Shown here in pieces: positions 4,202 through 19,431 of a stretch of DNA of 64,000 nt. The translations under genes and the position numbers were made by a program. The stretch is taken from IMG/VR virus record IMGVR_UViG_3300037222_000066; one strand, given 5' to 3'. The notes below the pieces were generated by a model. That model was not told the DNA's origin and searched no databases. It saw nothing but the letters and a program-made list of their open reading frames with translations. Position 1 is the first letter of the stretch; each line of letters begins with the position of its first letter. The DNA is from a virus.

Positions 4202-4204
4202 TTG

Positions 4205-4435: not shown

Positions 4436-4677
4436 CAGCTCTCTCCCGTTAGCGCGGTATTGCCGAAGCCGAAAGGAGGCGGCGTTGGCTGTTTACCGAA
4501 GTTGGGCTGTCCTGCCTGCTTGCCGTACTGGGTCGTGCTGCCCGGCTGGGGCTTAATGGTTAACGATCCCGGGGGCTGGGCCCGTAAACTGGGCGGGCGA
4601 GACCCCAGAACAAAAGAGGGTCGGGACTGGGCCGTTGGGCCCCGTACCGCCGTTTTCCCCATACGAACGCTCGGCAT
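4435..4677 (-). CDS. small Pro/Gly-rich protein (80 aa)
   Basis: Co-oriented, abutting ORF; low-complexity composition. Confidence 0.3.
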   Translation of the reverse strand: MPSVRMGKTAVRGPTAQSRPSFVLGSRPPSLRAQPPGSLTIKPQPGSTTQYGKQAGQPNFGKQPTPPPFGFGNTALTGES

Positions 4678-4904
4678 TAGCGGGCTCCCGTAATGCCCGC
4701 CGTAGCCGCCTGCGCGCCGGCAAAGCCGTGCATCTTGGTCTTGCCGCCGCTGGCAAACTTCTCGCCAGAGCCAGCGCCGGCGTCGGTCTCGGTCACGCCC
4801 GACTTTTGGGCGCCAACCTTCTGCGCGCCAAACATATGGGTGTTGCCACCCTTGGCGAACTCGACGTTATGCTGCTTCTCTTTCTTCTGGGTATCGACGG
4901 ACAT
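4677..4904 (-). CDS. small Gly/Lys-rich protein (75 aa)
   Basis: Motifs EFAKGGNTHMFGAQK and KTKMHGFAGAQ resemble the 4205 and 45345 products. Confidence 0.4.
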   Translation of the reverse strand: MSVDTQKKEKQHNVEFAKGGNTHMFGAQKVGAQKSGVTETDAGAGSGEKFASGGKTKMHGFAGAQAATAGITGAR

Positions 4905-4967
4905 GGTATCTCTCCCGCTGGATGAAACTGTCTCCGAGAGGATAACCCCTGAAAAACTAATAAGCTG

Positions 4968-5975
4968 TTAAAAGAGGCGGTCTTTCCACGTCCGGGGGGT
5001 CTTGTCCGAGATAATCTCTAAGTCCAAGTGATACTTGAATGGTCGATACCCGCGCACGTCAATTGCTTCCACCATGTTCAAAAGACCCTTGGTTAAGGAA
5101 GTCTTGGTTTCATAGCCCAGGAGCCGGCGGGCCTTATACGACGAACAGTGCGCGTATTTAACTTCTTGCGGGCGACCTGGCATGTAGACAGGAACCAACT
5201 TGAACCGGACTAGATTTGCAATCGTCTGGGCCAACTCGTTGATTGTCACCACACCCTCGTCGGGCCCAATATTGATCACCTCGCCAACCACGTTTTCCTG
5301 GAACGCCATTGCCTTGAGACAGAACAAGCAATCGTCAATGTAGGAGAAGCATCGCTCTTGGGTGCCATCGCCATAGATTACAGGCTGCCGCCCCTGCATC
5401 ATGAGGTTCATCATAATCGAGGCTACGTTGCGGTACGGGTCATCATACTTTTGGCGGGGCCCAATTATGTTGTGGGGTACCGCAATGACATACTCAACGC
5501 CGTGCGTTTCGCACAGGTTTCTTAAAAACTGCTCTACGGCCAGCTTTCCGATCCCGTACGGGTCTTGCGGCCTGCACCGCATGCTCTCGATAAACGGCGG
5601 CATTTGGGTTCCCCCGTAACGCGCCATAGACGAACAGATCACTATACGCTTCACAGAATTCGATATGGCGGCGGAAATTACGGATACACTCGCCCCGACT
5701 ATATTCTGTGTCACAACATGCGGTGAGAACACGCTCAAGCCTTCGTACGCTGTCGCCGCGCAATGATACACTATGTCGCATCCTCGTATCCTTTCCTTCA
5801 CGTCGGAGAAGTCGTTGCAGTCGATCTGGTGAAACTCTACACCAGCCGGGACATTATCCAACTCACCGCCGATCATGTTGTCGATCCCGACAACCTCGTG
5901 TCCGTCAGCCAGCATTACGTCTGCGAGGTGGCTGCCTAAAAACCCAGCCACCCCAGTGATGAATATCCTACTCAC
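4968..5975 (-). CDS. NAD(P)-dependent sugar epimerase/dehydratase (extended SDR, 335 aa)
   Basis: N-terminal Rossmann motif TGVAGFLGSHL (GxxGxxG); catalytic YxxxK as YGIGK; length typical of UDP/dTDP/GDP-sugar epimerases and 4,6-dehydratases. Confidence 0.8.
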   Translation of the reverse strand: MSRIFITGVAGFLGSHLADVMLADGHEVVGIDNMIGGELDNVPAGVEFHQIDCNDFSDVKERIRGCDIVYHCAATAYEGLSVFSPHVVTQNIVGASVSVISAAISNSVKRIVICSSMARYGGTQMPPFIESMRCRPQDPYGIGKLAVEQFLRNLCETHGVEYVIAVPHNIIGPRQKYDDPYRNVASIMMNLMMQGRQPVIYGDGTQERCFSYIDDCLFCLKAMAFQENVVGEVINIGPDEGVVTINELAQTIANLVRFKLVPVYMPGRPQEVKYAHCSSYKARRLLGYETKTSLTKGLLNMVEAIDVRGYRPFKYHLDLEIISDKTPRTWKDRLF

Positions 5976-6579
5976 GATGGATCACGATCAAGAATTCGGG
6001 CATCGTACCGTGGCACTTGTCACACTCGTCCCAGCAATGAGCCTTGCCCAGGCCATTCGGGCACGCGATGGCTTCCCACCGATAGCCCGGCGGCATGGGG
6101 ACGTGATCCATCACGCTCTCGGGCTGACAGTCCAGCGTCACGTCTTCAATGATGTAGACCCCACCAGTCTTGAGAAACGGCAGGAGGGTCTTTGCAGACG
6201 TGATCTGATGCTCCAGTTCGTGCGAGCCGTCGTCAATGATAACGTCGAACAGCGGGTTCTCCCACTTCTCCAGGGACTGGCGCAACTGGGCCGGATTGTT
6301 CTGGTCGCATCCCAGACTATGAATGCGACCCGCGTTAACCAGGCAGGAATAGTTGCTGTCCAACCCGTACACGTCAGCGTTCGGAAAGAACTCCTCCCAC
6401 ATTCGCAGGCTGGAGCCGTAGTTAATTCCAATCTCCAGCAGGCGCAAAATGCTCTCCTGCTTATCCTTGAACAGGTCCCAGTACGCCACCGTGTATGTGT
6501 GGCAGGTGTCGCCGGCGAGATAATGATCGCCGCCTTTATCCGTAGCGTGTTTCTTAGCTAGCTCGCACAGTGGGGTCAT
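5968..6579 (-). CDS. class I SAM-dependent methyltransferase, sugar O-methyltransferase-like (203 aa)
   Basis: HATDKGGDHY N-terminal motif; LEIGINYGSS and DVIIDDGSH SAM-binding motifs. Confidence 0.65.
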   Translation of the reverse strand: MTPLCELAKKHATDKGGDHYLAGDTCHTYTVAYWDLFKDKQESILRLLEIGINYGSSLRMWEEFFPNADVYGLDSNYSCLVNAGRIHSLGCDQNNPAQLRQSLEKWENPLFDVIIDDGSHELEHQITSAKTLLPFLKTGGVYIIEDVTLDCQPESVMDHVPMPPGYRWEAIACPNGLGKAHCWDECDKCHGTMPEFLIVIHRE

Positions 6580-7280
6580 GGGACAAATCCTGTGAATTGA
6601 GTGGCATCGTGGTTGGCGGCATATTGCCTAAACGGGAGACCAGAGTTCAACTCTGTATAGGCCCAGATTGGCAAGTCAATAGGAACCGTGCTGGTACGTT
6701 GAATAAATCTCCTGCACTCCCAATTGTATGAACGATCAATGGCCGGCAGGTATCTTGACGGCCATATGTGGGTCGATCCAACAAACCGCCAGTTTGCACC
6801 GGTGTCGGATGGCACACCTTTCTCCCAGATACCGGGGAACGGAATGTAGTTCATTCTCTCCATGGCTTCGATGCGGCTTATGAATGTGGCAATGATCTCC
6901 TCGGTCACCGGCTTACCAGTCCACGCGCCCTGCTTGAGCACGCCGTAGTCGAGCCACACCCATACGTCTACCCGCGGGTCCGCAGCGGCGGCTATCATGG
7001 CCCACGCGGTGCGCTGGTGTTGCACAATGTTGGACAAGACCATATGCCGCGGCGTGGCGTACCTGTCAGACGGTACCTCCGTTGCCGGCGGCAAGTCAGG
7101 CATAACATGCTCTTTCATGTACCTATACAGCCAGCAATCCTCTAGCGGATAATCGTAGAACACCTTGATCTTGTCCCCGAGCGCCGAAACAAGACCATTC
7201 CCGAGCGCCGTGTATTGCTGGCGCGTCAGGTGCTTCACTTCGAGCGGCACGTAGGCCGTGACGGCTTTGACGATCATCAT
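6576..7280 (-). CDS. tandem paralog B of unknown function, possible group/glycosyl transferase (234 aa)
   Basis: Clear paralogy to 7277-7981 (DCWLY, IVQHQ(R/K)TAW, W(V/I)DYG(V/I)L and C-terminal R(Q/W)Y.A(N/D)H motifs); same length. Confidence 0.5.
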   Translation of the reverse strand: MMIVKAVTAYVPLEVKHLTRQQYTALGNGLVSALGDKIKVFYDYPLEDCWLYRYMKEHVMPDLPPATEVPSDRYATPRHMVLSNIVQHQRTAWAMIAAAADPRVDVWVWLDYGVLKQGAWTGKPVTEEIIATFISRIEAMERMNYIPFPGIWEKGVPSDTGANWRFVGSTHIWPSRYLPAIDRSYNWECRRFIQRTSTVPIDLPIWAYTELNSGLPFRQYAANHDATQFTGFVP

Positions 7281-7981
7281 GCCCTCGCGTAGTTGGTGAA
7301 CATCGTTTCATTGTGGTCCGCCTGGTACCAGCGGATCGGCAGGCTGCCATACTTCTCCACGCGCGCCAGGTCGTTCACTTCCCAGGTCACGTTTCGCTTG
7401 AGGTTGATGTTCCGCATAGTGCGGTCCATGAACTCGTTGGAGAACCGGCGCAGGTACTTGCGGGGCACGACCATCAAGCCCCCGCAGAACCGCCAGGACG
7501 GATTGCTGTCGTCGGACGGCCGATCAGGACCCCAGCATCCCGGGATGGCAAAATCGTCGTCTTTCACCTGCCCGAGGAAGTTGTTGATCACGTCCACGGT
7601 CACGCCCGGTACGTGCAGGATGCCGTAGTCAATCCACACGAAGGTTGTGGCGCTCGGGTCTACGAGGGACGCCGCGCCCAGCCACGCCGTCTTCTGGTGC
7701 TGAACGATATGGTAGGCAAGTGTGTTCTTGGCCGGGTTGTCCCCCATAGAGTGCGTCAAATGAAAAGCGCCGGCCTTCTGCAAGTCCTTGTACAGCCAAC
7801 AGTCTTCAACCGTGTTGTAGAACGCCTTGAACGGCGCGCGGATAGCGCGCAGCCCCTTACCCAACTCACTGTACTCGGACATTGGGCGGGGATGCCCTTC
7901 GATGGGTACAAAGCCGGTGACGACGCGAATTCTAGTCATGCCAGATAAACTCCGATAGCTCGTTGGCGTCCACGGTCGCAA
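7277..7981 (-). CDS. tandem paralog A of unknown function, possible group/glycosyl transferase (234 aa)
   Basis: Paralog of 6576-7280; 4-nt overlaps with both neighbours. Confidence 0.5.
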   Translation of the reverse strand: MRPWTPTSYRSLSGMTRIRVVTGFVPIEGHPRPMSEYSELGKGLRAIRAPFKAFYNTVEDCWLYKDLQKAGAFHLTHSMGDNPAKNTLAYHIVQHQKTAWLGAASLVDPSATTFVWIDYGILHVPGVTVDVINNFLGQVKDDDFAIPGCWGPDRPSDDSNPSWRFCGGLMVVPRKYLRRFSNEFMDRTMRNINLKRNVTWEVNDLARVEKYGSLPIRWYQADHNETMFTNYARA

Positions 7982-9935
7982 TCCAGGCTTCCTTGTCCTC
8001 GCGGCCGTACGAAATCATGATGCTCTGACCGTTCGGGTGCCACGCGAGCCCGGCCACAAACTCGATCACTTTATCGTGAAAGTAGAACGGCTTGGTGATC
8101 CGCTGAACTGTCTTTGACTTGTCGTACCACACGAACCGGTGCTGATAGTAGCGCTTGCCGTTGTGTGGATGCACGCGGGCCTCATGCACGACTGACAGGA
8201 AGCCGCACTTAAATGGGATCACCTGTGAACTTCCACTGATCGCGTCAGCCGCAATGTTGATGGGCGTGCGCGATTTTTCAACACCGTTAGGGCGCACAGT
8301 GACACCCAGACGATAAGCAAACTCTAAATCATTGCCGTCAACCCACGGCATCCAGTTCTTCTCGTGCTGGCGGTGCGCCGGCAGCATGGCCCGAGCATCG
8401 GTGAGTGTGGCGCAGGTAACAAACGTTCCGGGGGCATTTGTTTTGCCAACGTCAATCCTGGCCAACCATTGCTCACACCAGCCCTCGTGGTTCTGTTCCC
8501 GCACACAAGCGTTAATCCACCAGCTGTTATTCCAGCTGAACAACCGCATGTCTTCAAACCCGGTTACCAGATCATATGCCGGCTTCGGCAAATGGGCCTT
8601 AACCTCTGCGTGTTGATTGACCTCAAAGTTATCTTTCAATGATACCAAAAAATTACGGGTGTTGATCGGGTTGGTTGAGTTCGCTTCGCCGTTTGTGCTT
8701 TTGATCAGGTACCGCCCTTGCTCGTCCATCGTGTAGTTGACAGTTCGCACCAGCACACAAATTTGTCCATTAGCCACCGCTATAGACGGGTTCATCGCGG
8801 TGTATCCATCCGGCGGGGTGAACGCAATCCGGCGGGTGGAGAATGACGACATTCTCTCAGACAGGGGCCGGATATAATGAAACAGATTGCCGCGCGCTTG
8901 CTCTCGGGAGAAATCGCTGGCGTCCTTAGACAGTGCAACATAGTTGCACATATCAAACCCACGCTCGCGGCGAGCCTTATCGTAGTACGCTACGATAGCG
9001 AACTCTTCGCGCAGCCCAATGGTGTAGACATAGTCATTCACAAACAACAGATCGCCGGGACGCTTGATGCGTAACCCCTCTTCGGCAACTAGGAGCGCGG
9101 CATAATTCATACCTTTAGTTCTGTAGTAGTTAGCTAGTGCATAGAGGGTTTCCGCACGACTGGGACGAAAATTGTATGCCCCCAACATTTCGGCCACAAA
9201 GCCACTATCATTTCCACTCTCGCGGAGCGTATTAGCGAGGTTAAAGCTAGCATTCCAGATTTCCTCGTCCCATCCCCCGAGTTCAATCCTTTTGCGATAA
9301 GCCTTCGCAGCCTTCTCCGGTTGGCCCGCATCCTTATAAGACTGAGCAAGATAGAACCACGATCTACCATTGTTTGGGTCCGTCTTTATTGCTTCCTTCA
9401 ACAGTCGAATATCTCGTACGGACTTATTCTTGCGATTAGAGCCATCTGCATGATCTTGAAAGTAAATTCCATGCACCTCGCCAGCCGTGGTCACGTCAAG
9501 ATATTCGTGCGTCACACCTACATAGTTTCCAGTGGCAGCACGGCTGACGAAGCGCGCATTGTGGTAGGACAGCGTGCCACCCTTCTGCACGACGTTATAG
9601 GCCATGCCGCTGCCTAGTTGTTTTTTGAAATTTTTGTCCTCGACAACCAGCTCCATATCCGCGTCACACAGGAGCAGATAGTCCCAAGAAAGCGGCGATT
9701 TTCGCGCGAGAGCGAGAGCGGCATTCCGGGCCTGCTCAAAGTTAACGAATGGAGCGTGCGTGATCTCGCCGGGAATTGATGCCGCGGCGAAGAACCCTTC
9801 AATCTTTTGTATGGTGTCATCGGTGCTTCCTGTGTCAACAATGGCATAGCTATCAATATGGGGGGCCACACTCTTGAGCATTCGCTCAATTCGGTCAGCT
9901 TCGTTCTTAACAATACAATTGAGCATTAATTTCAC
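7932..9935 (-). CDS. family 2 glycosyltransferase fused to TPR repeats and a C-terminal beta-rich domain (667 aa)
   Basis: N-terminal CIVKNEADRIERMLKSV...YAIVDTGSTDDT is a typical GT2 signature; central AQSYKDAGQPEKAAKAYRKRIELG TPR-like repeats; C-terminal ~300 aa of unknown fold. Confidence 0.65.
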   Translation of the reverse strand: MKLMLNCIVKNEADRIERMLKSVAPHIDSYAIVDTGSTDDTIQKIEGFFAAASIPGEITHAPFVNFEQARNAALALARKSPLSWDYLLLCDADMELVVEDKNFKKQLGSGMAYNVVQKGGTLSYHNARFVSRAATGNYVGVTHEYLDVTTAGEVHGIYFQDHADGSNRKNKSVRDIRLLKEAIKTDPNNGRSWFYLAQSYKDAGQPEKAAKAYRKRIELGGWDEEIWNASFNLANTLRESGNDSGFVAEMLGAYNFRPSRAETLYALANYYRTKGMNYAALLVAEEGLRIKRPGDLLFVNDYVYTIGLREEFAIVAYYDKARRERGFDMCNYVALSKDASDFSREQARGNLFHYIRPLSERMSSFSTRRIAFTPPDGYTAMNPSIAVANGQICVLVRTVNYTMDEQGRYLIKSTNGEANSTNPINTRNFLVSLKDNFEVNQHAEVKAHLPKPAYDLVTGFEDMRLFSWNNSWWINACVREQNHEGWCEQWLARIDVGKTNAPGTFVTCATLTDARAMLPAHRQHEKNWMPWVDGNDLEFAYRLGVTVRPNGVEKSRTPINIAADAISGSSQVIPFKCGFLSVVHEARVHPHNGKRYYQHRFVWYDKSKTVQRITKPFYFHDKVIEFVAGLAWHPNGQSIMISYGREDKEAWIATVDANELSEFIWHD

Positions 9936-10318
9936 TTGTACTTCTCCAGATAATCTGCAACGAGCCGCAGGTGCTTAGGGCTGTCTACCGCATGACCAGC
10001 GATCAAATTACAAGGTTGGCATAAAATTCCCCTAACTTTTCCGGTATCGTGGTCGTGATCTGTAGTCCAGCCCTTTCGCGTGCCCGCCGCATCACTACCA
10101 CACGCAGCGCATTTGTAATTTTGGGACATAAAAATAGCATCCCGCTGTTCTAGCGTGATGCCATATAACCTAATCTGATTGAGATTTTTTATGCGTAGCT
10201 TATTGTCGTCGCGCCATTGCTGGTACCGCGGACGATTTTTGCGTGAATACTCCGCGCAACGTGCCTTATTACGTTTACGCCACGCCTTTGAATATTCTGG
10301 ACTAGACGGCATTGACAC
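9932..10318 (-). CDS. HNH endonuclease, endonuclease VII family (free-standing homing endonuclease, 128 aa)
   Basis: CAACGSD...TDHDHDTGKVRGILCQPCN motif; paralogous to 20029-20520 and 58430-58849. Confidence 0.75.
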   Translation of the reverse strand: MSMPSSPEYSKAWRKRNKARCAEYSRKNRPRYQQWRDDNKLRIKNLNQIRLYGITLEQRDAIFMSQNYKCAACGSDAAGTRKGWTTDHDHDTGKVRGILCQPCNLIAGHAVDSPKHLRLVADYLEKYK

Positions 10319-10380
10319 TCCGAAGGGGATCGGGGTTTGAGCTATAGGTTTTTAGCCTATAGCTCATTTCGTGTCAACTG

Positions 10381-11073
10381 TTATCCGTTGGAAATTCGGA
10401 GCGGGCCAGTCATGCCGGCATAACCGAAGCCAGTAGCGCCGGTCGTGCCCGTTGGTCCAGGATCATGAACGCGATATACCGCACCGAGAATATGCGGGTC
10501 CACCTTGAGCACAACGAACTTTGTAAACGTGGCCGGATTTTTGTTGTAGCCCGCGGGACCGGTGACGCCGGTGATGCCCGTGGAGCCTGTGGCCGAAGTC
10601 GGACCAGTCTTACCAAACGGCCCAATGCCCGTCGCGCCGGTGATGCCAGTAGGGCCGGTAAAGCCAGTTGGTGAAAGACCGGGCAATCCGACAAATGGAC
10701 CTGTCGTGCCAGTCGGACCAGTCGCGCCGGTATGGGTGGTACCTGATGGACCTGTAGGAGAGGTACCAGAAACACCAGTGCTTGCATTAATAGTGAGACC
10801 GGGACCCTGTGGGCCTGTACAACCCGTCGGACCAGTTTGACCCTGTGAAGGGCCATGAGCGCCGGCACCAATTATCCCAGTTGGACCTGTCGAGCTACCC
10901 GCGGCCGCTGCCGTAGGACCCTTCAAACCGGTTGCGCCGGCCGGGCCATAAACGTTGGCATTGTTGATCAGCTCAACGACTTCCTCCAGCACCGCTGGAA
11001 TTTCGTTGTCATCATACGACTGCGGCGGCTTAGGTGCCGGGGTCAGCGGATTTACATACTTGGCCATGCTCAA
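10381..11073 (-). CDS. collagen-like (Gly-X-Y repeat) protein (230 aa)
   Basis: Long GPTG/GATG triplet repeats across most of the protein, with non-repeat N- and C-termini. Confidence 0.6.
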
Positions 11074-11076
11074 CCT

Positions 11077-11646
11077 TTACCCGTTCGAGATAGTCAGTAC
11101 GCCACTGTTGTTCCACACCTGGTTGACCACATACGGGTCCGCGAGCGGCGGGATGAACAATGTCACCGTGGTCCCGGTCGGACCAGTGTTACCGGTCGCA
11201 CCCGTGGCACCAGTTACACCTTGACCAGTTGCACCGGTAGGCCCTGTCGTGGTGCCCGTGGTGCCCGTGGGGCCAGAGCTACCGGCGGGGCCGGTAGCGC
11301 CAGTCGTGCCAGTCGGACCAGTCGGGCCACCAGCCTGACCAGTGGCACCGGCGGGGCCAGCCGGACCAGCCGGGTTTGCACCCGTCGGACCCGTCGGACC
11401 AGTGTTACCAGTCGCACCCTGCGCGCCGGCCGGACCTTGCGGGCCGCCAAACGAACCGGTTGGACCAGTGACGCCGGTAGGGCCTGTCGGGCCCGTAAAA
11501 CCTGTTGCTGAACCAGTTGGGCCAGTCGGACCGGTCAAACCGGTTGGGCCACCAATGTTACCGGCATTAACTGCGGCAACGACCTGGGCGAGAATATTGC
11601 CAATCTGGTTTCGATCCGGATTGGTGACCGCGGGAATAGTTGACAT
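11077..11646 (-). CDS. collagen-like (Gly-X-Y repeat) protein (189 aa)
   Basis: [13 protein letters not shown]... repeats; globular C-terminal ~40 aa. Confidence 0.6.
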
Positions 11647-11706
11647 AGATGACCCCTTCGAGGCTGCCTGCGTGATATCGGTACGCTAGAATTCGTTGAT
11701 CGTTCC

Positions 11707-12516
11707 TTAATTCTCTAGGATAACTTTCGACCGGCCATTTGGCTTAAACCAGAAGGGAGGAGCAAACCGGGCAAATAGTTCGGGCGGCAAGGAAGTTTCC
11801 CGAGGGATTTTACGAACTCGCTTGCCTACTGCGTGGAGACCAGGAGTACCAAGTCTAGCGTCGAACTCAGACGCCCCGGGTATCGGCTGCACGTTGTCGA
11901 AGTCATGTTTTAGCGCGGGGAGGGATAACCATTCGTAAATAGCGCTAATAACACGCGCGGGATTAGCAGCGAGCCCATCATAATCCACCAACATTAAACG
12001 GTCCGCATAGGGCCCGTAGTATGCCTCTTTCAATGAATTCAGTGGATACCCGATCATCCCGTTAGAAGCCGCCAACATATCAGCACGATCAAATACGTTC
12101 ATATTGGCGTCAAATTTGAACAACCCGCTCACTTGTAACGGATATTTACGTAACAGTTTTTCAACGCTGTCCATAATCCACGCCGGCTGCCGCACACAAC
12201 AGATCAAGCGGCAATCTGGAAACAACTGGACTAGTAATGGCAATTTTCCGGTCCAGGCGCGATTGCTGTCTATCGCAGTAATTCTTGGGTCTTCCGGGTA
12301 GTACGCAGAAAATAAACCGGTAATCATGTTCGCGCGGTCCGCATCGGTTACAAACACGGACGTTTCCTGGTTAGCCGCGGTCGCACGTTGCACGGCATTG
12401 ACAATCCCATATATGGGCGAAATTATTGACGTTTGCAAAAACGGGTTCTGCTGGAGGATCGCAGCGAGTAGCGTGCTGCCGCTACGCGGGAGCCCGCTTA
12501 AAAAGTGAGCATTCAT
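11707..12516 (-). CDS. PAPS-dependent sulfotransferase-like protein (269 aa)
   Basis: N-terminal GLPRSGSTLL motif matches the 5-prime-PSB loop of Sulfotransfer_3/Stf0-type sulfotransferases. Confidence 0.6.
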   Translation of the reverse strand: MNAHFLSGLPRSGSTLLAAILQQNPFLQTSIISPIYGIVNAVQRATAANQETSVFVTDADRANMITGLFSAYYPEDPRITAIDSNRAWTGKLPLLVQLFPDCRLICCVRQPAWIMDSVEKLLRKYPLQVSGLFKFDANMNVFDRADMLAASNGMIGYPLNSLKEAYYGPYADRLMLVDYDGLAANPARVISAIYEWLSLPALKHDFDNVQPIPGASEFDARLGTPGLHAVGKRVRKIPRETSLPPELFARFAPPFWFKPNGRSKVILEN

Positions 12517-12522
12517 AAGGAC

Positions 12523-14838
12523 TTACCCTACACCTGGGGAAATAGGTTTAGCTCCGGGCCCGGGCTGGTTGCCAACCAAGGTTGCCGATTGAGGGCCTAG
12601 CCCATGGCCGGCCGGCTGTCCAGGTCTATTTCCCTGGCCCTGCGCGGCGGCGCGGTTCAAGTCCATTCCTGGGTTATTCGTTTGCCCATCCTGGCCACCG
12701 TTGCCCTCAGGCGTACCAATATGCACGGGCGGCCCTTCTGGCATCTGGGCGCGGGCGGCCAGCGCGCCGGCGGTCAATTCGGTCGCAATACGCTGCACGC
12801 CCAATTCGACGCCCTTATGGACACCTTGCTCGACCTGTTGGGTCATATCGCCGCCGCTGGCCTGTTGCTGCTTCTCAGCAGCGTCCATCTGCTCAATCTC
12901 TTGCTCACTCGGCACGATCTGCTCGCCGTCCAATCCGATGGTACTAGAGACTGACCGCAGCACACTGGCGCGGCCCTTGAGCCCGACGATCTTCTGATCA
13001 ACTGGGTTGATCGTGGCAGACAAGAACTCAATCTGGCGCTGTCGCAAAGTCTCGCGTTGGATCGCAACATTGACGCCCTGGACACTAATCTTCTCCTCGC
13101 CGGTCAGCAATCCGGTTGTATCGGTCAACATGATCAAGTCGGACAGTTGCAGGAGCGCGGGCTCCAGCACGTCCCGGTCAATATTAGCGCTCACGCTCTG
13201 CAAAATCTTCGAGGCATTGCCCATGAGCATAGCCAGCCCGGATGCGGTTCGGCCGGCGCCGCCGGCGGCACCCTGCCCACCAACATACTTCGGAATGGCC
13301 GAAACGTCATCGGCCAGGCCAACGCAGAACTCGAACACAGACTGGAGCTGCTGTGCGTTCGAGGTTGGCATAAAGAACGAAACAGGAACCTGGGCATTAT
13401 TACCCACCGGGTCGTTGCGCGCGTGCCAGCGCTTCCACGGATATAGATCATCAGTGTTCTCGTCCGGCGACACGCGGTCGTCGTTGATCACGACTTGCGG
13501 GCCCGAGGCTATGCTTAAGTTATTGACAAGACTACGTAAAGTGGCGTTTGCCACCTCCTGTAGATCGGTCAGCAAATCGGTCAATCCGTTACCAATGGGG
13601 GTACCCGGCACCTTCTCGAATGATGTAATAAAGTACGGATGGCGCTGTCGCGGGGATGGCGACAAATGCGCCTTAATGACATGCGTGCCAATGACCCACG
13701 CTTGAACATTGTAGTCCCGTAACTCGTCCGGGACAGCCAAACCATACTCTTGCAAAACGCGTCCCTGAACATTGCCGTTGAACTCCATCATGGAGAGCAT
13801 GCCGGACCGGTTCCAGGCCGGGTTCTCGCGGCTCTCTAAAGTTGCCCGTTCTGCATCGGTCGTGTCCCAGTTATCGTATAGGCCTCCACGCCCATATTCA
13901 TCCAAGACAGCTCGGATTTCATCCTCATTATACCCTGGCAAATCGAGCAGATCATTAATCTCGGCTCGGGTGATACGTAGCTTTTCGATGGTGTTTGCAT
14001 TTTCAATGTCCGCGACACCCGGTGTCCACCACAAATCGAACGGCGACACGCGGTTCCAGGTCAGCTTTGGCTTCTGTTGGACTGTGGGAGCGCCTCCGTT
14101 GGGCGGCCACACGACCTCAGGAACGACCTTTACAACCGGGCCTTTTATGCACGCGAACGGGAATATCGGCAGGTCTACCAGGAACTCCGCGAGAGCATGA
14201 TAGAAGCCACCATCGCGCAGCAGCCCTTCAATTTTTTCGTCGCTATCTCGGGCCTGCTGGGTCGCTTTTTTCTTGGCCGCGTCCTTGGCCGCCTCTACCA
14301 ACGCGTCACGGCGCTGCTTAACGTCGGCCGGGTTCGGGGGCTGCCCCTTATGCTGCTGCACGAGCTGCTGCTCGGACTGCATCATCTGGTCAATACTCTG
14401 GATGATTTGCGGCGGCACGACGGGATCGGACGGCGGCTTGACAGACCAGGGCTGGTCCTGGCCTAAATAAATATCCCGGAGCAGCGAACTGGCGGCACGG
14501 CATTTTTGGGCGATCAGGCGGGCGTACACCTGTGACCCGCCGAACTTGGCAATTTCGGCCAATTTGGAGGCATCGTACTGGCCATTGAACGTGCGGAGGG
14601 CAACCAATAGGCGCTCAGACCACCCGGACGCCGTGTTCCGGTGGTTCCGCATTATCTCGAATTGACCCTTGATATAGCCAGCTAACTGGGGTATTTCTGG
14701 CTCTGGAGGGGCATTGTCCTGCGCGGACGCCGTAGCCCGCTCCTGGAGCTGTTGCTCCAGCGCAGCCGGTGGGATAACTTGGAGTACGCCGCTTTGTCCG
14801 AGGTCGCTCATGCCTTGTCCGGCTGAAAAGGATTGCAC
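12523..14838 (-). CDS. portal protein candidate (771 aa)
   Basis: Large protein at the head of the structural operon, divergent from the terminase island; size and position fit a portal. Confidence 0.5.
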   Translation of the reverse strand: MQSFSAGQGMSDLGQSGVLQVIPPAALEQQLQERATASAQDNAPPEPEIPQLAGYIKGQFEIMRNHRNTASGWSERLLVALRTFNGQYDASKLAEIAKFGGSQVYARLIAQKCRAASSLLRDIYLGQDQPWSVKPPSDPVVPPQIIQSIDQMMQSEQQLVQQHKGQPPNPADVKQRRDALVEAAKDAAKKKATQQARDSDEKIEGLLRDGGFYHALAEFLVDLPIFPFACIKGPVVKVVPEVVWPPNGGAPTVQQKPKLTWNRVSPFDLWWTPGVADIENANTIEKLRITRAEINDLLDLPGYNEDEIRAVLDEYGRGGLYDNWDTTDAERATLESRENPAWNRSGMLSMMEFNGNVQGRVLQEYGLAVPDELRDYNVQAWVIGTHVIKAHLSPSPRQRHPYFITSFEKVPGTPIGNGLTDLLTDLQEVANATLRSLVNNLSIASGPQVVINDDRVSPDENTDDLYPWKRWHARNDPVGNNAQVPVSFFMPTSNAQQLQSVFEFCVGLADDVSAIPKYVGGQGAAGGAGRTASGLAMLMGNASKILQSVSANIDRDVLEPALLQLSDLIMLTDTTGLLTGEEKISVQGVNVAIQRETLRQRQIEFLSATINPVDQKIVGLKGRASVLRSVSSTIGLDGEQIVPSEQEIEQMDAAEKQQQASGGDMTQQVEQGVHKGVELGVQRIATELTAGALAARAQMPEGPPVHIGTPEGNGGQDGQTNNPGMDLNRAAAQGQGNRPGQPAGHGLGPQSATLVGNQPGPGAKPISPGVG

Positions 14839-14882
14839 CGTGAACCTAACCGGAACGCGCTAATAATGCCTTAACAATTGCG

Positions 14883-15470
14883 ATGTTGCATTTAATACCG
14901 ACCTGGTGTACGGATTTGGCCATGATCGATCATATTGACGAAAGCGAGCGCCTGGACGAAGTTATACGGGCGGCGCTCCCGGCCACGTTATCGTCCAATG
15001 GCCTAAACCTTTCCGACCTAGCCGCGCTTGCCCGCGACCTGATCCTCAATCTCAGAGAACTGCCGGCCACGCTTGCCGCGCACAAAATCACCCAAGAGCA
15101 ATATGGCAGGATTAAAGAGAACGAATTTTTCAAGCGCGCCCTAGAACAGCTCACCATTGAATGGCATTCAGCCAAGTCAACTACTGACCGGTTGAAAATC
15201 CAAGCCGCGGCGTCGTTTGAATACGCCATGCCAACCATAACCGCGAGAATGGTAAAGAACGATGAAGACCTCGGCAAAGTAGTTGAAGCTGGCAAGCTGC
15301 TCGCTAAAGTGGCCGGCGTGGATAGCAGCGAAGCCCAGGCAGCCTCAAACCCCGGCGAGAAATTTTCTATTGTTATTAACCTAGGAGAAGATACGAAGCT
15401 CAAGTTTGAAAAAGACGTAACCCCCGCGGTGCCACTCTTATTGAAAGAAAAAACCAATGAGCCAGCCTAA
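14883..15470 (+). CDS. hypothetical protein, terminase small-subunit candidate (195 aa)
   Basis: Immediately upstream of the exonuclease and terminase large subunit on the same strand; no motif support. Confidence 0.3.
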   Translation: MLHLIPTWCTDLAMIDHIDESERLDEVIRAALPATLSSNGLNLSDLAALARDLILNLRELPATLAAHKITQEQYGRIKENEFFKRALEQLTIEWHSAKSTTDRLKIQAAASFEYAMPTITARMVKNDEDLGKVVEAGKLLAKVAGVDSSEAQAASNPGEKFSIVINLGEDTKLKFEKDVTPAVPLLLKEKTNEPA

Positions 15471-16227
15471 AGTCGCGTTCTTCGATATCGAGACTGCCCC
15501 ATCCCTAGGCTGGTTCTGGGGCAAGCTATGGGAAACATCAATCATCGACGTGAAGACCCCGTGGTACATGTTGTCTTTTGCATACAAGTGGCAAGGGAGC
15601 GACAAAATTCACATTCACGCGCTGCCCGACTATCCGCTGTTCAAAAAGGACAAGGAGAATGACAAGCACCTCATCGAAGACCTCCACGATCTCTTTGATG
15701 AAGCGGACGTTCTCATCGCCCACAATGGTGACAGATTTGATATCCGTAAGAGCAATGCTCGCTTCATCACCCAGGGCCTGCGACCGCCGTCTCCTTACAA
15801 GTCGATTGATACTCTTAAAGCCGCACGCCGGTTCTTCCAGTTTGACAGCAACAAGCTGAACGACCTGGGCCAATACCTCGGGGTCGGGCGCAAGCTGCCG
15901 CACACTGGGTTCGATCTGTGGTCCCGCTGTATGCGTGGAGAAAAGTCTGCATGGAAGACGATGAAAGAATACAACGCCCGCGATATCGTGCTACTCGAAC
16001 GGGTCTACGAAAAGCTGAAACCCTACATGACAAATCACCCCGATCTTACTATCTACGAAGATGCAGTAGGGTGCCCAACATGCCGGTCCACTCATATTCA
16101 TCGCCGCGGGTTTGCGGTCAGCAGGAAGCGCAAGTATCGCCGCTATCATTGCGGTAACTGCGGCTCCTGGTTCCAAGGAGCCGTCATCAAGCTGGGTGAG
16201 AAAGTCCCCGACAAACACGGAAAATAA
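15457..16227 (+). CDS. DEDDh-type 3-5 exonuclease (RNase H-like fold) with C-terminal zinc ribbon (256 aa)
   Basis: Exo motifs FFDIETAP (Exo I), AHNGDRFD (Exo II) and YNARD (Exo III); CPTC...CGNC zinc ribbon. Confidence 0.6.
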   Translation: MSQPKVAFFDIETAPSLGWFWGKLWETSIIDVKTPWYMLSFAYKWQGSDKIHIHALPDYPLFKKDKENDKHLIEDLHDLFDEADVLIAHNGDRFDIRKSNARFITQGLRPPSPYKSIDTLKAARRFFQFDSNKLNDLGQYLGVGRKLPHTGFDLWSRCMRGEKSAWKTMKEYNARDIVLLERVYEKLKPYMTNHPDLTIYEDAVGCPTCRSTHIHRRGFAVSRKRKYRRYHCGNCGSWFQGAVIKLGEKVPDKHGK

Positions 16228-16310
16228 TATGCGCGATATGCTTTGGGCTCTGGGTCTACAAGCCAGCTTCTGGTTCTGCGTATGGCTGACTTATCGGGCA
16301 GGCTATACAG

Positions 16311-17783
16311 ATGGACAGCGGCATCCAAATGGGCATTGAGTACACAGCACCGCCTACCTGCGCGGCCTTCCAGAAGTCCGAAGCCTTCGGACGGCTAATT
16401 GCTGGGCCCGTGGGCTCTGGTAAGACGACTTCCTGTGTGATGGAGCTAGCGCGCCGGTCCATGCAGCAGGCTCAGGCCGGCGATGGCCTGCGGTACACCC
16501 GCCACGCCATTGTCCGTCAAACCCTCAAACAGTTGAAGGACACCGTGCTCAAGGACTGCCGCTCGTGGCTGGGCGGCCTGGGCGAATGGAAAGTTTCCGA
16601 GAATACCTTCCACCTGAACTTTGGCGACGTACGCTCCGAGTGGATATTCATTCCTCTCGAAGACGCCGCGGATCAAGCGCGTTTGCTGTCCATGCAACTG
16701 ACAGGAGCCTGGTTGTCCGAATGCATCGAAATGAACCTGGACGTTGTCGCGCCAATTACTGGCCGCCTAGGCCGATATCCATCGGGCGCTCAAGGTACGC
16801 CTACGTGGCATGGTCTGATCGCGGATACGAACATGCCTACGGAAATGTCTCCTTGGCATACATTCATGGAGAACCCGAATGCGGATTGGCAGGTCTACAT
16901 TCAGCCTTCGGGATTGTCGCCCAACGCCGAGAATTTAAACTATCTCGTGCAGAATGAACGAACTATCCTGCTGCCTATTGATCATCCAGATCGCTTGGCG
17001 CAGGGCCGCAAATACTACGAACGCTTCGTTGAAATGTACGGCGAGGACAGCGACTGGGTTAAGCGCTATGTCCACGCGCAGTACGGCGATGACCCGTCCG
17101 GCATGGCCGTCTTCAAGGAAAGCTGGCGTTCAGACTTCCACGTTGTGAACGACACGATGCTGATCCCGGGCTACCCCATTGTGGTAGCACAAGATTTTGG
17201 CCGCAACCCGTGGTCATTGATTTGTCAAGCCGATCACATGGGCCGGCTGATCGTTCATGAGGAAGTTCCCGGCACAAACATAGGTTTGGAAAAACATGTC
17301 AACCAAAGCCTGCGCCCTCGACTGCTATCGAACAAGTACGTCGGCTATAAGGTCGCCATGGTTGGAGACCCGGCCGGGGTGGCCAAAGGAAACATTTCCG
17401 AGGAAAGCTGCTTCGACGCCCTCAAGCGCCTGGGATTACCAGCGTTCCCCGCGGTTACGAACGATATTGAACCAAGGCTGCGCGCGGTTGAAGCCTTATT
17501 GGGAAGACAGACAAACGGCGGTCCGACCCTCATGGTGAACCGCCAAGGCTGCCCAATGTTGATACGCGCTATGTCAGGTGGCTATCGCTTCACCAAGACG
17601 AAGGCCGGGGCGCTCCGGGTCGTGCCCGAGAAGAACGATAAAGAGGGATATTCCCACGTAGCCGACTGCTTGCAATACGCTTCTCTCGTCGTTGGAGGCG
17701 GGCTAATGGGTGAAATCGCCAGAAGGTTGCGGGGTCGAACTCGACCAGCAGGCCCCACAATTTCAGCCGCAGCTTGGACATAG
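16311..17783 (+). CDS. terminase large subunit (490 aa)
   Basis: Walker A GPVGSGKTT near the N-terminus, followed by an acidic-residue-rich nuclease half. Confidence 0.8.
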   Translation: MDSGIQMGIEYTAPPTCAAFQKSEAFGRLIAGPVGSGKTTSCVMELARRSMQQAQAGDGLRYTRHAIVRQTLKQLKDTVLKDCRSWLGGLGEWKVSENTFHLNFGDVRSEWIFIPLEDAADQARLLSMQLTGAWLSECIEMNLDVVAPITGRLGRYPSGAQGTPTWHGLIADTNMPTEMSPWHTFMENPNADWQVYIQPSGLSPNAENLNYLVQNERTILLPIDHPDRLAQGRKYYERFVEMYGEDSDWVKRYVHAQYGDDPSGMAVFKESWRSDFHVVNDTMLIPGYPIVVAQDFGRNPWSLICQADHMGRLIVHEEVPGTNIGLEKHVNQSLRPRLLSNKYVGYKVAMVGDPAGVAKGNISEESCFDALKRLGLPAFPAVTNDIEPRLRAVEALLGRQTNGGPTLMVNRQGCPMLIRAMSGGYRFTKTKAGALRVVPEKNDKEGYSHVADCLQYASLVVGGGLMGEIARRLRGRTRPAGPTISAAAWT

Positions 17784-17913
17784 CGTTAGCGCCCGTACAC
17801 GCACTTGATTATGAACTCGTGTAGAGGCCACTTGTCCGGGTTTGAACCTTCAAAGATAATGTTGACTAGGCGATGCCGCATGACAGCGGCATCGCGCATT
17901 GTTTGCCAGATGA

Positions 17914-18053
17914 TCATCGTAATAGCATCACGATCAGGACGATCACCAGGATGAAGCCAATCCCGCCGCCGCCGTACCGGTAAGGTCCGCCAGCGTAGAA
18001 CCCGCCACCTCCGAACAAGAGGATCAGGATCAGGATCAACAGAATTAAGCCCA
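17914..18053 (-). CDS. small membrane peptide (46 aa; two hydrophobic helices around a GGGGFYAGGPYRYGGGG loop)
   Basis: GGAGG RBS 7 nt upstream of ATG at 18053 (minus); the longer 72-aa ORF call has no RBS. Confidence 0.4.
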
Positions 18054-18058
18054 TAGCT

Positions 18059-18358
18059 TTACCTCCGTTGGGTTTGGACCTTTGGCTCGACTGTCGGCCC
18101 TGCGTGATCCGACTTGTCCAAGCCACTGTCATCTACCCTGGGCGCTTGCGTGCCCGGGTCATTGCCGGCGGCGCCATGCGCGTCACCGCGAATATTCTGC
18201 GGCGGGTGCTGTGGGTTCATAACCACAGGCGTTTCCGGATGCTCGGGCGCCGGCCTAAACACTGGTGCCTGCGAACCCGGATCAGTCGTAATGACTTGCG
18301 GCCCCGCGGGGTCTTTTGGTTGAGATAGATCGAGAACAGGCTTTACAGTAACGGTCAT
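18059..18358 (-). CDS. Pro-rich hypothetical protein (99 aa)
   Basis: Co-oriented ORF with a plausible RBS. Confidence 0.3.
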   Translation of the reverse strand: MTVTVKPVLDLSQPKDPAGPQVITTDPGSQAPVFRPAPEHPETPVVMNPQHPPQNIRGDAHGAAGNDPGTQAPRVDDSGLDKSDHAGPTVEPKVQTQRR

Positions 18359-18633
18359 AAGAATACTCCCCAGTTTGTTGCTACGCTTTCCTATTAACGC
18401 GCGACTGAGCCATTAGTTTCCGCTTGAAGTCCAACCGGTTCACCTTGCGACCGTTCAACAGCCGGGCCTGGCGCCGGCGCCGCTTAGCAGTTGCACACAC
18501 AGTCATAATGGCCTCTTAAAGTGGTGTCCGATAAAGTACGATAACGAGTAGCCCGCGGCAAACGAGAGAAACACGGCAATGTGCCAGCCGATCAACTCCA
18601 GCGCGGTCTCGTTTCCGAAAAGAAAGTGACGCA

Positions 18634-19017
18634 CTATTTATCCTCTGGTTTAGCCGCCTCAACAACTTGCTGTGCAACTTTCGCCGCACGGACGACCACG
18701 CTTTCTGCTGTGGCCTGTGCCAGTTGAACTTGCCCCACATTTACCGGGTGTGCCACCAGCTCCAAAGCGATCAACCGGTCAAACTCTATTTTGGCTTTTG
18801 CAATCTTGCGGAGGAGGCGCCCTCTTTTCCAACCCTGATATGTCTTGCTTTCGTAGATTTGAATGCCGTACCAGAGCAACGCGACCACGGCCGCTACCCC
18901 CGGAAACCATCCGACAATAGAACCTAAGAGGGCAGCACCGGATAGAGTATGGCCTATCCAGCTAATAATCCCCTGGCCCTCTTCCACTTCGCTACCCCGT
19001 GCTGCTACAAATGGCAT
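18634..19017 (-). CDS. membrane protein (127 aa)
   Basis: Hydrophobic segments LSGAALLGSIVGWFPGVAAVVALLWYGI. Confidence 0.45.
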   Translation of the reverse strand: MPFVAARGSEVEEGQGIISWIGHTLSGAALLGSIVGWFPGVAAVVALLWYGIQIYESKTYQGWKRGRLLRKIAKAKIEFDRLIALELVAHPVNVGQVQLAQATAESVVVRAAKVAQQVVEAAKPEDK

Positions 19018-19065
19018 AAGTGCCCCGTGTCTGATTTACATAAGGTAAAGAGGAACCATGAATAA

Positions 19066-19431
19066 TTAGTGAATTTTATCGTCTTCCCAAGGGCACTGGA
19101 CCACTAATTCCATGTGTTTTTTCAACATGTCCCGGTGTTTTGCCGCCAGGTCTGTCAACTCTTTTATTGCACTTTCCAGCTTCTCGGGCACCTGGGCGCC
19201 AATTTTAATCAGGTTCTGGATCGAGATCAGGGTCTGGAGCCGGCCGGCCGCGGAGTGCAGCGCGAACGCCGTAGACATGCCATCGACAAACGGCTGCCGC
19301 TCCAGGTGCCGATCATAGCTGTCAACGGTGGCCAGGATGGCCTGGGCTTGCAGCTGCCCTATAGTCGTGATGTTTACCGGCGCCTGGAGAGCGTCGATGA
19401 TCATCATTTCATTTAACAGCGGTGTGGGCAT
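19066..19431 (-). CDS. hypothetical protein (121 aa)
   Basis: Co-oriented ORF in the leftward early block. Confidence 0.45.
   Translation of the reverse strand: MPTPLLNEMMIIDALQAPVNITTIGQLQAQAILATVDSYDRHLERQPFVDGMSTAFALHSAAGRLQTLISIQNLIKIGAQVPEKLESAIKELTDLAAKHRDMLKKHMELVVQCPWEDDKIH

Follow-up and report, generated by a model that had tools for sequence, protein, structure and literature searches.

A predicted PAPS-type sulfotransferase beside the collagen-like fibre genes of a phage, with the fibres as candidate acceptors

In the uncultured phage recorded in IMG/VR as IMGVR_UViG_3300037222_000066, the portal gene is followed by a gene whose 269-aa product has the sequence, the motifs and the predicted fold of a PAPS-type sulfotransferase, its activity being predicted. 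The stretch of 64,000 nucleotides that was analysed is referred to here as the window (Table 1). The best explanation overall, which we regard as about equally likely to be right or wrong, is that an active PAPS-dependent enzyme sulfates the phage's own collagen-like fibres. The enzyme would be a cytoplasmic member of a widespread bacterial family of ~270-aa proteins, its gene being co-transcribed with the late structural genes and probably coupled to the portal gene in translation. With host PAPS as the presumed donor, sulfate would be put on the fibre proteins during their cytoplasmic synthesis and glycosylation, and the progeny would bear negatively charged, sulfated fibres. Sulfation would then be one more, optional step of tailoring, on top of a conserved fibre-glycosylation cassette that the virus encodes. 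A Ser, Thr or Tyr side chain of the fibre and an O-glycan on the fibre are about equally probable as acceptors.

Table 1. Features of the portal-to-capsid region, with positions in the window.
Feature	Position	Strand	Evidence or remark
Portal gene	12523..14838	minus	SU10_portal 33.1 bits (above cutoff); phrog_332, E 4e-55; phrog_1216
Sulfotransferase gene	11707..12516	minus	269 aa, ATG start
5'-phosphosulfate-binding loop GLPRSGSTLL, aa 8-17	12466..12495	minus	Strand-loop-helix E3-8, H14-21 (model)
3'-phosphate-binding motif R109-x7-S117, RQPAWIMDS	12166..12192	minus	End of strand E104-108, start of helix H111-124 (model)
Collagen-like fibre protein 1	11077..11646	minus	189 aa, C-terminus ...VLTISNG; Pfam Collagen; PHROG tail-fibre and collagen-like families
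Collagen-like fibre protein 2	10381..11073	minus	230 aa, 16-residue N-terminal motif, C-terminus ...PLRISNG; PHROG tail-fibre families
Endonuclease VII gene	9932..10318	minus	Endonuclease_7 87.9 bits
GT2 with TPR repeats and C-terminal beta-mannosyltransferase-like domain	7932..9935	minus	667 aa; Glycos_transf_2, TPR, phrog_13126
unkA, GT-A-fold glycosyltransferase	7277..7939	minus	Predicted fold
unkB, putative GT-A glycosyltransferase	6576..7280	minus	unkA paralogue, 30% identity, E 6e-30
Methyltransferase, class I SAM-dependent	5968..6579	minus	Methyltransf_24 30.9 bits; phrog_21658
NAD-dependent nucleotide-sugar epimerase/dehydratase	4968..5975	minus	Epimerase 155 bits; GDP_Man_Dehyd 136 bits; phrog_540
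Scaffold-like protein and major capsid protein	2811-3935 and 1744-2754	minus	phrog_13678, phrog_267, Phage_capsid_4

The product matched Pfam Sulfotransfer_3 (PF13469) at 52.4 bits (cutoff 27, E = 1.1e-13) and Sulfotransfer_1 at 34.5 bits (cutoff 22), and its residues 3-252 aligned with positions 5-262 of the 280-position profile of phrog_27463, a phage sulfotransferase-like family (E = 2e-34). More than 1,100 homologues were found, nearly all of which carry the same Pfam domain. The predicted fold is that of a sulfotransferase and not of a nucleotide kinase, the top structural matches were all sulfotransferases, and the kinase Walker A motif GxxxxGK[ST] was absent from the ORF. In a conservation alignment of 107 homologues, comprising two phage clades and 81 bacteria, R11 and G13 of the 5'-phosphosulfate-binding (5'-PSB) loop were invariant, with S12, S14 and T15 nearly so, as were R109 and S117 of the 3'-phosphate-binding (3'-PB) motif and seven further polar residues (E51, D83, R86, E119, R144, D219 and H228), all of these being invariant. 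The two motifs aligned with GVPRSGTTL and VRDGRASVHS of TPST1, respectively. No N-terminal signal or transmembrane segment was apparent when the sequence was inspected by eye, and the first beta-strand of the model begins at residue 3. The gene is under purifying selection (dN/dS = 0.15-0.19), and the conserved motifs and polar residues together with the low dN/dS make it likely that the enzyme is active.

Tyrosylprotein sulfotransferases (TPSTs) are the nearest characterised relatives of the ~270-aa family. The family profile matched TPST1 at E = 2.9e-11, and similarity in both sequence and modelled structure was closest to the TPST family (reference structures of human TPST1 and TPST2 and of the tick enzyme; PDB 5wri, 5wrj, 3ap1-3 and 8w5z), with carbohydrate sulfotransferases clearly lower in fold and profile. 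The position of the TPST catalytic Glu (E99 of TPST2, 21 residues past the PSB Arg) is taken in the alignment by I32, with I, Q, M, S or T across the family, and that of the catalytic Lys (K158) by S84, with S, N or T. Since the catalytic Glu is not conserved, the ~270-aa family is separate from TPST; given that the Lys is not conserved either, closeness to TPSTs would be no guide to what the phage enzyme sulfates. The first-pass annotation had described an ORF adjoining the portal gene, and its coordinates were exact; the annotation named no strand, and the ORF is on the minus strand. The portal was recognised by SU10_portal, phrog_332 and phrog_1216. Its reading of GLPRSGSTLL as the PAPS 5'-PSB loop agrees with the Pfam score above cutoff and the near-invariance of the loop among the 107 homologues. 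As for the family name it gave, Stf0/Sulfotransfer_3, the second half is borne out by the 52.4-bit match, but the affinity to Stf0 was wrong: Stf0 was neither a family-profile match nor the closest structural neighbour. An affinity to NoeE (NCBIfam NF052394) was also rejected, the match reaching 23.1 bits against a cutoff of 500 and covering residues 5-118 only. Of the 3'-PB motif and catalytic base that the annotation proposed to look for, the former is present and invariant, whereas a TPST-type Glu and Lys are not; the structure prediction that it likewise proposed gave a sulfotransferase fold in the model and no P-loop kinase fold.

The ATG of the sulfotransferase lies 6 nt past the stop codon of the portal gene, which is immediately upstream on the same strand. 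The gene is thus placed in the late structural operon and is presumably expressed late; a promoter and terminator scan from 2.5 to 16.5 kb gave matches at background level. At least 590 relatives of the portal were found in IMG/VR. In 18 of the 20 related phage loci that carry the gene, its start is at most 40 nt from the stop codon of the portal gene and the fibre genes come next, and independent contigs with 60-74% identity have the same portal-sulfotransferase-fibre order. The phage sulfotransferases that occupy this slot fall into at least two deep clades (neighbour-joining tree, no support values). Among cultured phages, the nearest relatives have Rhizobium as their host, and the lineage probably infects soil- or peat-dwelling Alphaproteobacteria. 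Megablast found no near-identical DNA in cultured phages for the region from 7.9 to 16.3 kb. The sulfotransferase is an accessory gene on a conserved fibre-glycosylation cassette: it was present in 19 of 69 related phages, compared with 50 of 51 for the fibres and 35 of 35 for the GT2-TPR protein.

The informative neighbours of the sulfotransferase are the downstream fibre genes and the glycosylation cassette, rather than the portal. Two to three fibre genes follow it per related phage. Fibre protein 1 carries GPT/GxY repeats, and its 87%-identical orthologue in phage L091 contains 26% Gly and 21% Thr; Thr-rich GPT-type collagen repeats, such as those of BclA, are classic O-glycan carriers. 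Gene position and a PHROG tail-fibre similarity driven by the collagen repeats point to the fibres as probable virion components, and within the phage only their adjacency to the gene suggests them as its acceptors. A candidate Tyr site is Y20 of fibre protein 2, within an 11-residue motif that is also found in sulfotransferase-free phages, and the TYDDN-type N-terminus of this protein is kept across the lineage with or without the enzyme. Co-variation of the fibre sequence with the sulfotransferase, in the form of a Tyr-acidic motif specific to carriers, was considered and rejected, as YD(D/R)N occurs in both groups; phage L153, which has no sulfotransferase, encodes fibres nearly the same as those of the carriers L117 and L119, with no visible difference.

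The cassette, located 3' of the fibre genes, encodes four glycosyltransferase domains, a methyltransferase and an epimerase. Its downstream end is marked by the scaffold and capsid genes, and in Rhizobium phage RHph_TM3_14A, which lacks the cassette, three tiny ORFs separate the portal from the scaffold and capsid genes. Residues 376-664 of the 667-aa protein match cyanophage genes annotated as 'beta-mannosyltransferase'. The true start of unkA is probably M15 of an ORF beginning at 7981, and the best structural match of its product was A64R of PBCV-1, which glycosylates the capsid; sequence-only PDB searches with unkA and unkB returned spurious matches only. The GT-A glycosyltransferase fold led us to reject the idea that these two proteins supply the collagen hydroxylases 'missing' from an Iyer-type operon. 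The endonuclease VII gene, whose position and strand vary among relatives, is probably a mobile insertion inside the cassette and outside its function. Counts inspected by eye revealed no clear pattern of mutual exclusion between sulfotransferase and methyltransferase as alternative caps.

Among bacterial homologues, a Gly-rich secreted protein adjoins the sulfotransferase in 28 of 80 loci, the remaining 52 being without one. Starts of Gly-rich ORFs lay within 1.5 kb in 29 of 144 flanks, against 1 of 255 flanks further out (p = 4e-13), and tail-collar-like proteins were found near the homologue in three loci. The recurring feature is compositional only: no bacterial neighbour defined by Pfam was conserved, and neither glycosyltransferase or polysaccharide families nor biosynthetic-cluster families ranked among the 25 commonest Pfam families of the 150 neighbours closest to the homologues. 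The Gly-rich partners are not enriched in Tyr (2.3%), except for one Gly-Tyr repeat protein. In two cultured strains, Roseiarcus fermentans DSM 24875 (locus L013) and Acidiphilium sp. PA (locus L011), the homologue adjoins a Gly-rich protein of the PEP-CTERM kind. No 2OG-Fe(II) dioxygenase was present among the 25 most frequent families near the bacterial homologues, and none of the beta-hydroxylase or PhyH type among the 38 larger window ORFs that were scanned. Distant phage sulfotransferases (S-SKS1 and jumbo-phage contigs) and one prophage copy have no Gly-rich neighbour; therefore, phage sulfotransferases are not all fibre-linked.

The first-pass annotation had further held that the enzyme needs host PAPS and that it sulfates either a virion component or a host surface glycan. 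Signatures of APS kinase, CysD and CysH were all absent from a six-frame motif scan of the window, and families that supply PAPS had no match among the 38 ORFs scanned, so dependence on host PAPS is a fair inference. As to the target, the genomic context best supports a virion component, and no positive evidence was obtained for a host surface glycan. In the latter case, a host glycan or glycolipid precursor (LPS, EPS, capsule or Nod-factor-like) would be sulfated, masking receptors late in infection against debris trapping or superinfection. Most characterised bacterial sulfotransferases of the superfamily, including NodH, NoeE and Stf0, act on carbohydrates or glycolipids and supply a precedent. 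Also in favour are the weak N-terminal match to NoeE (23 bits against 500), the Rhizobium host of the closest cultured relatives, and one homologue in an early or moron-like prophage region, the typical place of host-conversion genes. However, in the present lineage the gene is never early or moron-like and is fixed between portal and fibres in the structural operon, the NoeE score is far under its cutoff, TPSTs are clearly nearer in fold and profile than carbohydrate sulfotransferases, and no polysaccharide or glycosyltransferase family is among the 25 most frequent of the bacterial neighbours. We consider modification of the host envelope rather unlikely.

It is also unlikely, in our estimation, that the target of glycosylation by the cassette is a head protein, be it the major capsid protein or another, and that the sulfotransferase decorates its glycan, with the fibres as bystanders. 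Such a role would fit the match of unkA to the capsid-glycosylating A64R and the location of the cassette, which has the portal on one side and the scaffold and capsid genes on the other; glycosylation of mycobacteriophage capsids and tail tubes by adjacent glycosyltransferases, reportedly described by Freeman et al. in 2023, is established. Nevertheless, the fibres and the glycosyltransferases come and go as a set, a Rhizobium phage with a 65%-identical capsid protein having neither, and the sulfotransferase abuts the fibre genes and not the capsid gene. The Gly-rich partners of the bacterial homologues and the general role of Thr-rich GPT collagen repeats as O-glycan carriers likewise speak for the fibres. 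A small-molecule role, in which an auxiliary metabolic gene would sulfate a metabolite or natural product or perturb the PAPS and sulfur economy of the host, is very unlikely: although Sulfotransfer_3 genes of cyanophages and OM43-phage genomes have been treated as metabolic (PMC10580990), the place in the structural operon is strictly conserved here, the Gly-rich adjacency of the bacterial homologues depends strongly on distance (p = 4e-13), and biosynthetic-cluster families are missing from the 25 most frequent families of their neighbours. Finally, the missing TPST catalytic Glu would suit a P-loop kinase-like protein or an inactive structural remnant with a sulfotransferase-like N-terminal loop, but both PAPS motifs are conserved without a Walker A motif, all top structural matches are sulfotransferases, and seven more polar residues are invariant at a dN/dS of 0.15, making this scarcely credible.

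Sulfation of the fibres by the phage enzyme may also be one case of something broader. Possibly, though this is doubtful, the ~270-aa TPST-like family serves bacteria and phages generally as a system that O-sulfates Gly-rich or collagen-like extracellular proteins directly (in bacteria those of the PEP-CTERM, Hint-domain, autotransporter and PE_PGRS-like kinds, in phages the collagen-like fibres), with the present lineage making sulfated virion fibres by use of host PAPS. If true, a phage particle would for the first time be known to be modified post-translationally by sulfation, and prokaryotes would have a counterpart of the sulfated proteins of the extracellular matrix. To our knowledge, sulfation has so far been demonstrated on no phage virion, and a literature search on the subject found nothing relevant. 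With sulfated fibres, phages could tune the surface charge of their virions, which would affect adsorption to host polysaccharides, soil or peat particles and eukaryotic mucus-like matrices, and could alter how host defences or immune systems recognise the particles. The locus provides a concrete context for phage sulfotransferase genes, with natural pairs of carriers and non-carriers available. The association of the bacterial homologues with Gly-rich proteins (p = 4e-13) points to an unstudied protein-modification system that may reach wider, and it revives an in-silico prediction of 2010 (PMC2938197).

Compared with known sulfotransferases, the phage protein is just 17-24% identical to TPST1 and TPST2, and its family is marked by invariant residues of its own (E51, D83, R86, E119, R144, D219 and H228); with no evident type II membrane anchor it would be cytoplasmic, whereas TPST is Golgi-lumenal. 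Stf0, NodH and NoeE resemble it in superfamily, PAPS motifs, bacterial type and cytoplasmic location. RaxST of Xanthomonas oryzae, the characterised tyrosine sulfotransferase of bacteria and a cytoplasmic TPST-like enzyme of the raxSTAB operon, sulfates the secreted peptide RaxX and is encoded beside a type I secretion system (PMC4646787, PMC4216712); an HlyD-like component was found near 4 of the 80 bacterial homologue loci. By description, the substrate of RaxST is a short Tyr peptide in an acidic context, while the partners here are Gly-rich and acid-poor with ordinary Tyr. The sulfotransferase genes of the cyanophages S-SKS1, S-SRM01 and S-SCSM1 and of OM43-phage genomes share the Pfam domain and phrog_27463 with the present gene at 23-29% identity, but are scattered among hypothetical genes of large genomes, at a distance from structural modules, and lack a Gly-rich neighbour. 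The role of phage sulfotransferase genes, treated as metabolic genes, has been called "unclear" (PMC10580990).

The closest likeness in gene partners is to the bacterial operons of Iyer et al. (2010), whose in-silico prediction was that collagen-like or Gly-rich proteins and tail-collar proteins are modified by the sulfotransferases encoded with them (PMC2938197). The same kinds of partners and the same proposed acceptor class were recovered independently here; those operons are bacterial and add 2OG-Fe(II) hydroxylases, which would hydroxylate before sulfation. We know of no sulfotransferase in the virion-glycosylation systems of chloroviruses or mycobacteriophages. PMC11256854 describes glycosylation of mycobacteriophage capsids and tail tubes by neighbouring glycosyltransferases. 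In these phages and in the A064R system of chlorovirus PBCV-1 the acceptors are the capsid or the tail tube, whereas here they are likely the collagen-like fibres.

The sulfotransferase ORF begins 6 nt past the stop codon of the 771-aa portal ORF and scored above the cutoffs of Pfam Sulfotransfer_3 (52.4 bits; cutoff, 27) and Sulfotransfer_1 (34.5 bits; cutoff, 22); its PHROG family, phrog_27463 (E 2e-34), is of unknown function. The first-pass annotation had placed a sulfotransferase-like gene beside the portal gene without giving a strand, and the ORF, motif and portal profiles all agreed with it. An AlphaFold2 model based on 49 homologues was very confident (pLDDT 94, pTM 0.91), and its best 13 Foldseek matches in the PDB were all tyrosylprotein sulfotransferases (TPSTs; E ~1e-9, TM ~0.58), followed by heparan-sulfate 3-O-sulfotransferases and polyketide sulfotransferases (E ~3e-6); thus, the predicted fold is not that of a P-loop kinase, the alternative named in the annotation. 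The 3'-phosphate-binding motif proposed there as a check was found at the canonical strand-to-helix junction of the model, while the suggested Stf0 affinity was not borne out, the nearest characterised relatives being TPSTs.

In profile and pairwise alignments, the catalytic Glu of TPSTs, 21 residues past the Arg of the phosphosulfate-binding loop, corresponded to I32, a position that varies freely across the family (I/Q/M/S/T), and the TPST Lys corresponded to S84. No membrane anchor was evident in the protein, which opens with its first beta-strand. A TPST proper was ruled out on these three grounds, which place the enzyme in a distinct ~270-aa family. Across 107 aligned homologues (81 from bacteria, the others from two phage clades), R11, G13, E51, D83, R86, W88, R109, S117, E119, R144, D219 and H228 were invariant, and dN/dS came to 0.15 when the gene was compared with its closest full-length relative and to 0.19 for another pair (0.02 for the adjoining portal gene). 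Given these residues and ratios, the sulfotransferase appears to be enzymatically active and maintained by purifying selection, with E51, D83, E119 and H228 as candidates for the catalytic base. Its fold and cofactor chemistry are ordinary; the informative part of its context is the neighbourhood.

Genes and motifs of the sulfotransferase locus, in minus-strand order from the portal gene downstream
Feature	Coordinates	Strand	Remarks
Portal protein	12523..14838	minus	771-aa ORF; Pfam SU10_portal above cutoff; matches phrog_332 and phrog_1216
Sulfotransferase ORF	11707..12516	minus	269 aa, ATG start
GLPRSGSTLL	12466-12495	minus	Residues 8-17 of sulfotransferase
3'-phosphate-binding motif	12166-12192	minus	R109-x7-S117, RQPAWIMDS
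Collagen-like fibre protein 1	11077-11646	minus	GPT/GxY repeats, conserved termini
Collagen-like fibre protein 2	10381-11073	minus	Same features as fibre protein 1
Endonuclease VII	9932-10318	minus	
GT2 + TPR + beta-mannosyltransferase-like protein	7932-9935	minus	667 aa
unkA	7277-7939	minus	Paralogue of unkB
unkB	6576-7280	minus	Paralogue of unkA
Methyltransferase	5968-6579	minus	
NAD-dependent sugar epimerase/dehydratase	4968-5975	minus	
Small ORFs	3959-4904	minus	
Scaffold-like protein	2811-3935	minus	
Major capsid protein	1744-2754	minus	

The four glycosyltransferase domains and the sugar-tailoring enzymes of the downstream cassette point to a virus-encoded protein-glycosylation toolkit; TPR linkage is typical of protein glycosyltransferases. 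A third, longer collagen-like protein (62493-63980, minus; 495 aa), with strong PHROG tail-fibre matches, is another possible acceptor for glycosylation or sulfation enzymes. The window holds two Endonuclease VII genes, one embedded in the cassette and one at 20029-20520 (minus), and the position and strand of the embedded copy differ among related phages, suggesting a mobile, homing-type element. A 13-bp perfect inverted repeat (10338-10366; TGAGCTATAGGTT...AGCCTATAGCTCA) in the 62 nt that separate fibre gene 2 from the embedded endonuclease gene could be a terminator or attenuator past the fibre genes, or an insertion boundary of the endonuclease gene. Elsewhere, a 1728-aa ORF (45716-50902, minus), with an extreme AT skew of -0.34 over 48-50 kb, and the adjoining 859-aa ORF (50902-53481) had no PHROG match, and ARAGORN called a tRNA-like gene without an identity (30520-30596, plus; 2-nt 'anticodon', ct). 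The family-A DNA polymerase appears split between an exonuclease-subunit-like gene (15457-16227, plus), flanked by an unknown gene on one side and the large terminase on the other, and a DNA_pol_A domain fragment 17 kb away (33456-34457, plus).

At least 590 portal relatives were present in IMG/VR, and 80 loci were analysed. Where at least 3 kb followed the portal gene, fibre genes occurred in 50 of 51 loci, and where at least 7 kb did, GT2-TPR occurred in all 35; the sulfotransferase occurred in only 19 of the 69 loci with 1 kb or more. Judging from these counts, it is an optional addition to a conserved core of fibre and glycosylation genes. In 18 of 20 carrying loci, its start lay no more than 40 nt from the stop codon of the portal gene, with the fibres directly next. 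Other phages fill this slot with extra fibre-like proteins that share the fibre N-terminal motif and have other distal domains. Judged from by-eye motifs, slot cargo in loci lacking the sulfotransferase includes a 464-aa protein whose N-terminus is of the fibre type and which has an SGNH-esterase-like region containing GDS(R) (L149, 12598-13992) and a 289-aa metallophosphoesterase-like protein (L163, 10225-11094; L166, 13304-14173). In the closest cultured relatives, Rhizobium phages RHph_TM3_14A, TM27A/B and TM29 (capsid proteins 65% identical), three tiny ORFs separate the portal gene from scaffold and capsid, fibres and glycosyltransferases being missing together. Compared with IMG/VR contig 3300037140_000081 (window 10308-16220 and 4520-9743 against contig 8619-14531 and 15090-20291, respectively), the portal was 98% identical at the protein level, the adjoining sulfotransferase 74% and the cassette genes 74% to 94%, so the cassette is mosaic or fast-evolving beside a conserved portal.

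More than 1,100 homologues were retrieved. Those with 56-74% identity lay on phage-like contigs with the gene order of the window, and those with 42-51% on bacterial chromosomes (Acetobacteraceae, Beijerinckiaceae, Caulobacteraceae, Sphingomonadaceae, Dyella, Pseudoxanthomonas, Mycobacterium and others). Annotated phage records held only distant copies (23-29%), in cyanophages S-SKS1, S-SRM01 and S-SCSM1 and marine single-cell viral contigs; a 2023 paper (PMC10580990) says that what phage sulfotransferases do "remains unclear". In a neighbour-joining tree (no support values), the phage copies split deeply into two or more clades, and one copy grouped within bacterial sequences, a pattern that fits an old divergence as well as several captures into this slot. 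A 292-aa homologue (L006, 8001-8879) in a prophage integrated in a 4.3-Mb bacterial contig lies amid small early-region genes, with an integrase 4 kb downstream, a context unlike that of the virion-module copies.

At 80 bacterial loci, Gly-rich ORFs (a 120-aa stretch with 28% Gly or more, and little Arg) started within 1.5 kb of the sulfotransferase in 29 of 144 flanks, compared with 0 of 132 at 1.5-3 kb and 1 of 123 at 3-4.5 kb (p = 4e-13, Fisher's test; 28 of 80 loci). These partners were diverse: one consisted purely of Gly-Tyr repeats, and among the others were PEP-CTERM, Hint-domain, autotransporter-like and PE_PGRS-like mycobacterial proteins. HlyD-like type I secretion components and tail-collar-like proteins occurred at 4 and 3 of the 80 loci, respectively. 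When the 150 nearest bacterial neighbours were tallied by Pfam family, no glycosyltransferase, polysaccharide or dioxygenase family was among the 25 most frequent families listed. No Gly-rich neighbour was found beside the more distant phage sulfotransferases or the prophage copy. In a Lichenihabitans MAG (L039), a 151-aa ORF of nearly all Gly-Tyr repeats (58% Gly, 38% Tyr) ends 262 nt upstream of the homologue (6001-6792) and, if real, is an obvious candidate Tyr-sulfation substrate.

Sulfation of the fibre glycoproteins is the reading with most support. The enzyme would be produced together with the late structural proteins, draw on host PAPS (the window's six-frame translation held no APS-kinase, CysD or CysH signatures) and add sulfate to the collagen-like fibre glycoproteins while these are in the cytoplasm, either ahead of assembly or in its course. 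Two acceptors are about equally probable. Ser, Thr or Tyr of the fibre polypeptide is favoured by the kinship with TPSTs, by the gene abutting fibres rather than glycosyltransferases, and by the bacterial pairing with Gly-rich proteins, with no glycosyltransferase family among the 25 commonest neighbour families listed. The glycosylation cassette around the gene speaks for a glycan on the fibres, as does the fact that most characterised bacterial sulfotransferases work on sugars. A broader reading, in which virion fibres are O-sulfated directly on the protein by a general system for Gly-rich proteins, is a tentative proposal that we consider doubtful. Against fibre sulfation in either form, gene adjacency is the only link between enzyme and fibres, the fibres show no visible co-variation with sulfotransferase presence, and their virion location is itself a prediction. 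Sulfation of the host envelope instead is unlikely. Tailoring of capsid glycans by the sulfotransferase is similarly improbable. A metabolic or small-molecule role is very unlikely, and a function other than sulfotransfer is scarcely credible.

Annotated phage sulfotransferase genes were already known. New here are the specific, conserved position of the gene as an optional part of a virion fibre-glycosylation cassette across a large lineage of uncultured phages, the recognition of the former unknowns unkA and unkB as capsid-glycosyltransferase-like enzymes, and a numerical measure of how family members associate with Gly-rich secreted proteins. A link with collagen-like proteins had been predicted for bacteria by Iyer et al. 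in 2010 (PMC2938197), whose in-silico proposal was that collagen-like or Gly-rich and tail-collar proteins are modified by the sulfotransferases encoded alongside them. The operons they described include 2OG-Fe(II) hydroxylases as well, whereas none was found among the 38 phage ORFs scanned; the bacterial sulfotransferase/Gly-rich pairing found here matches their prediction.
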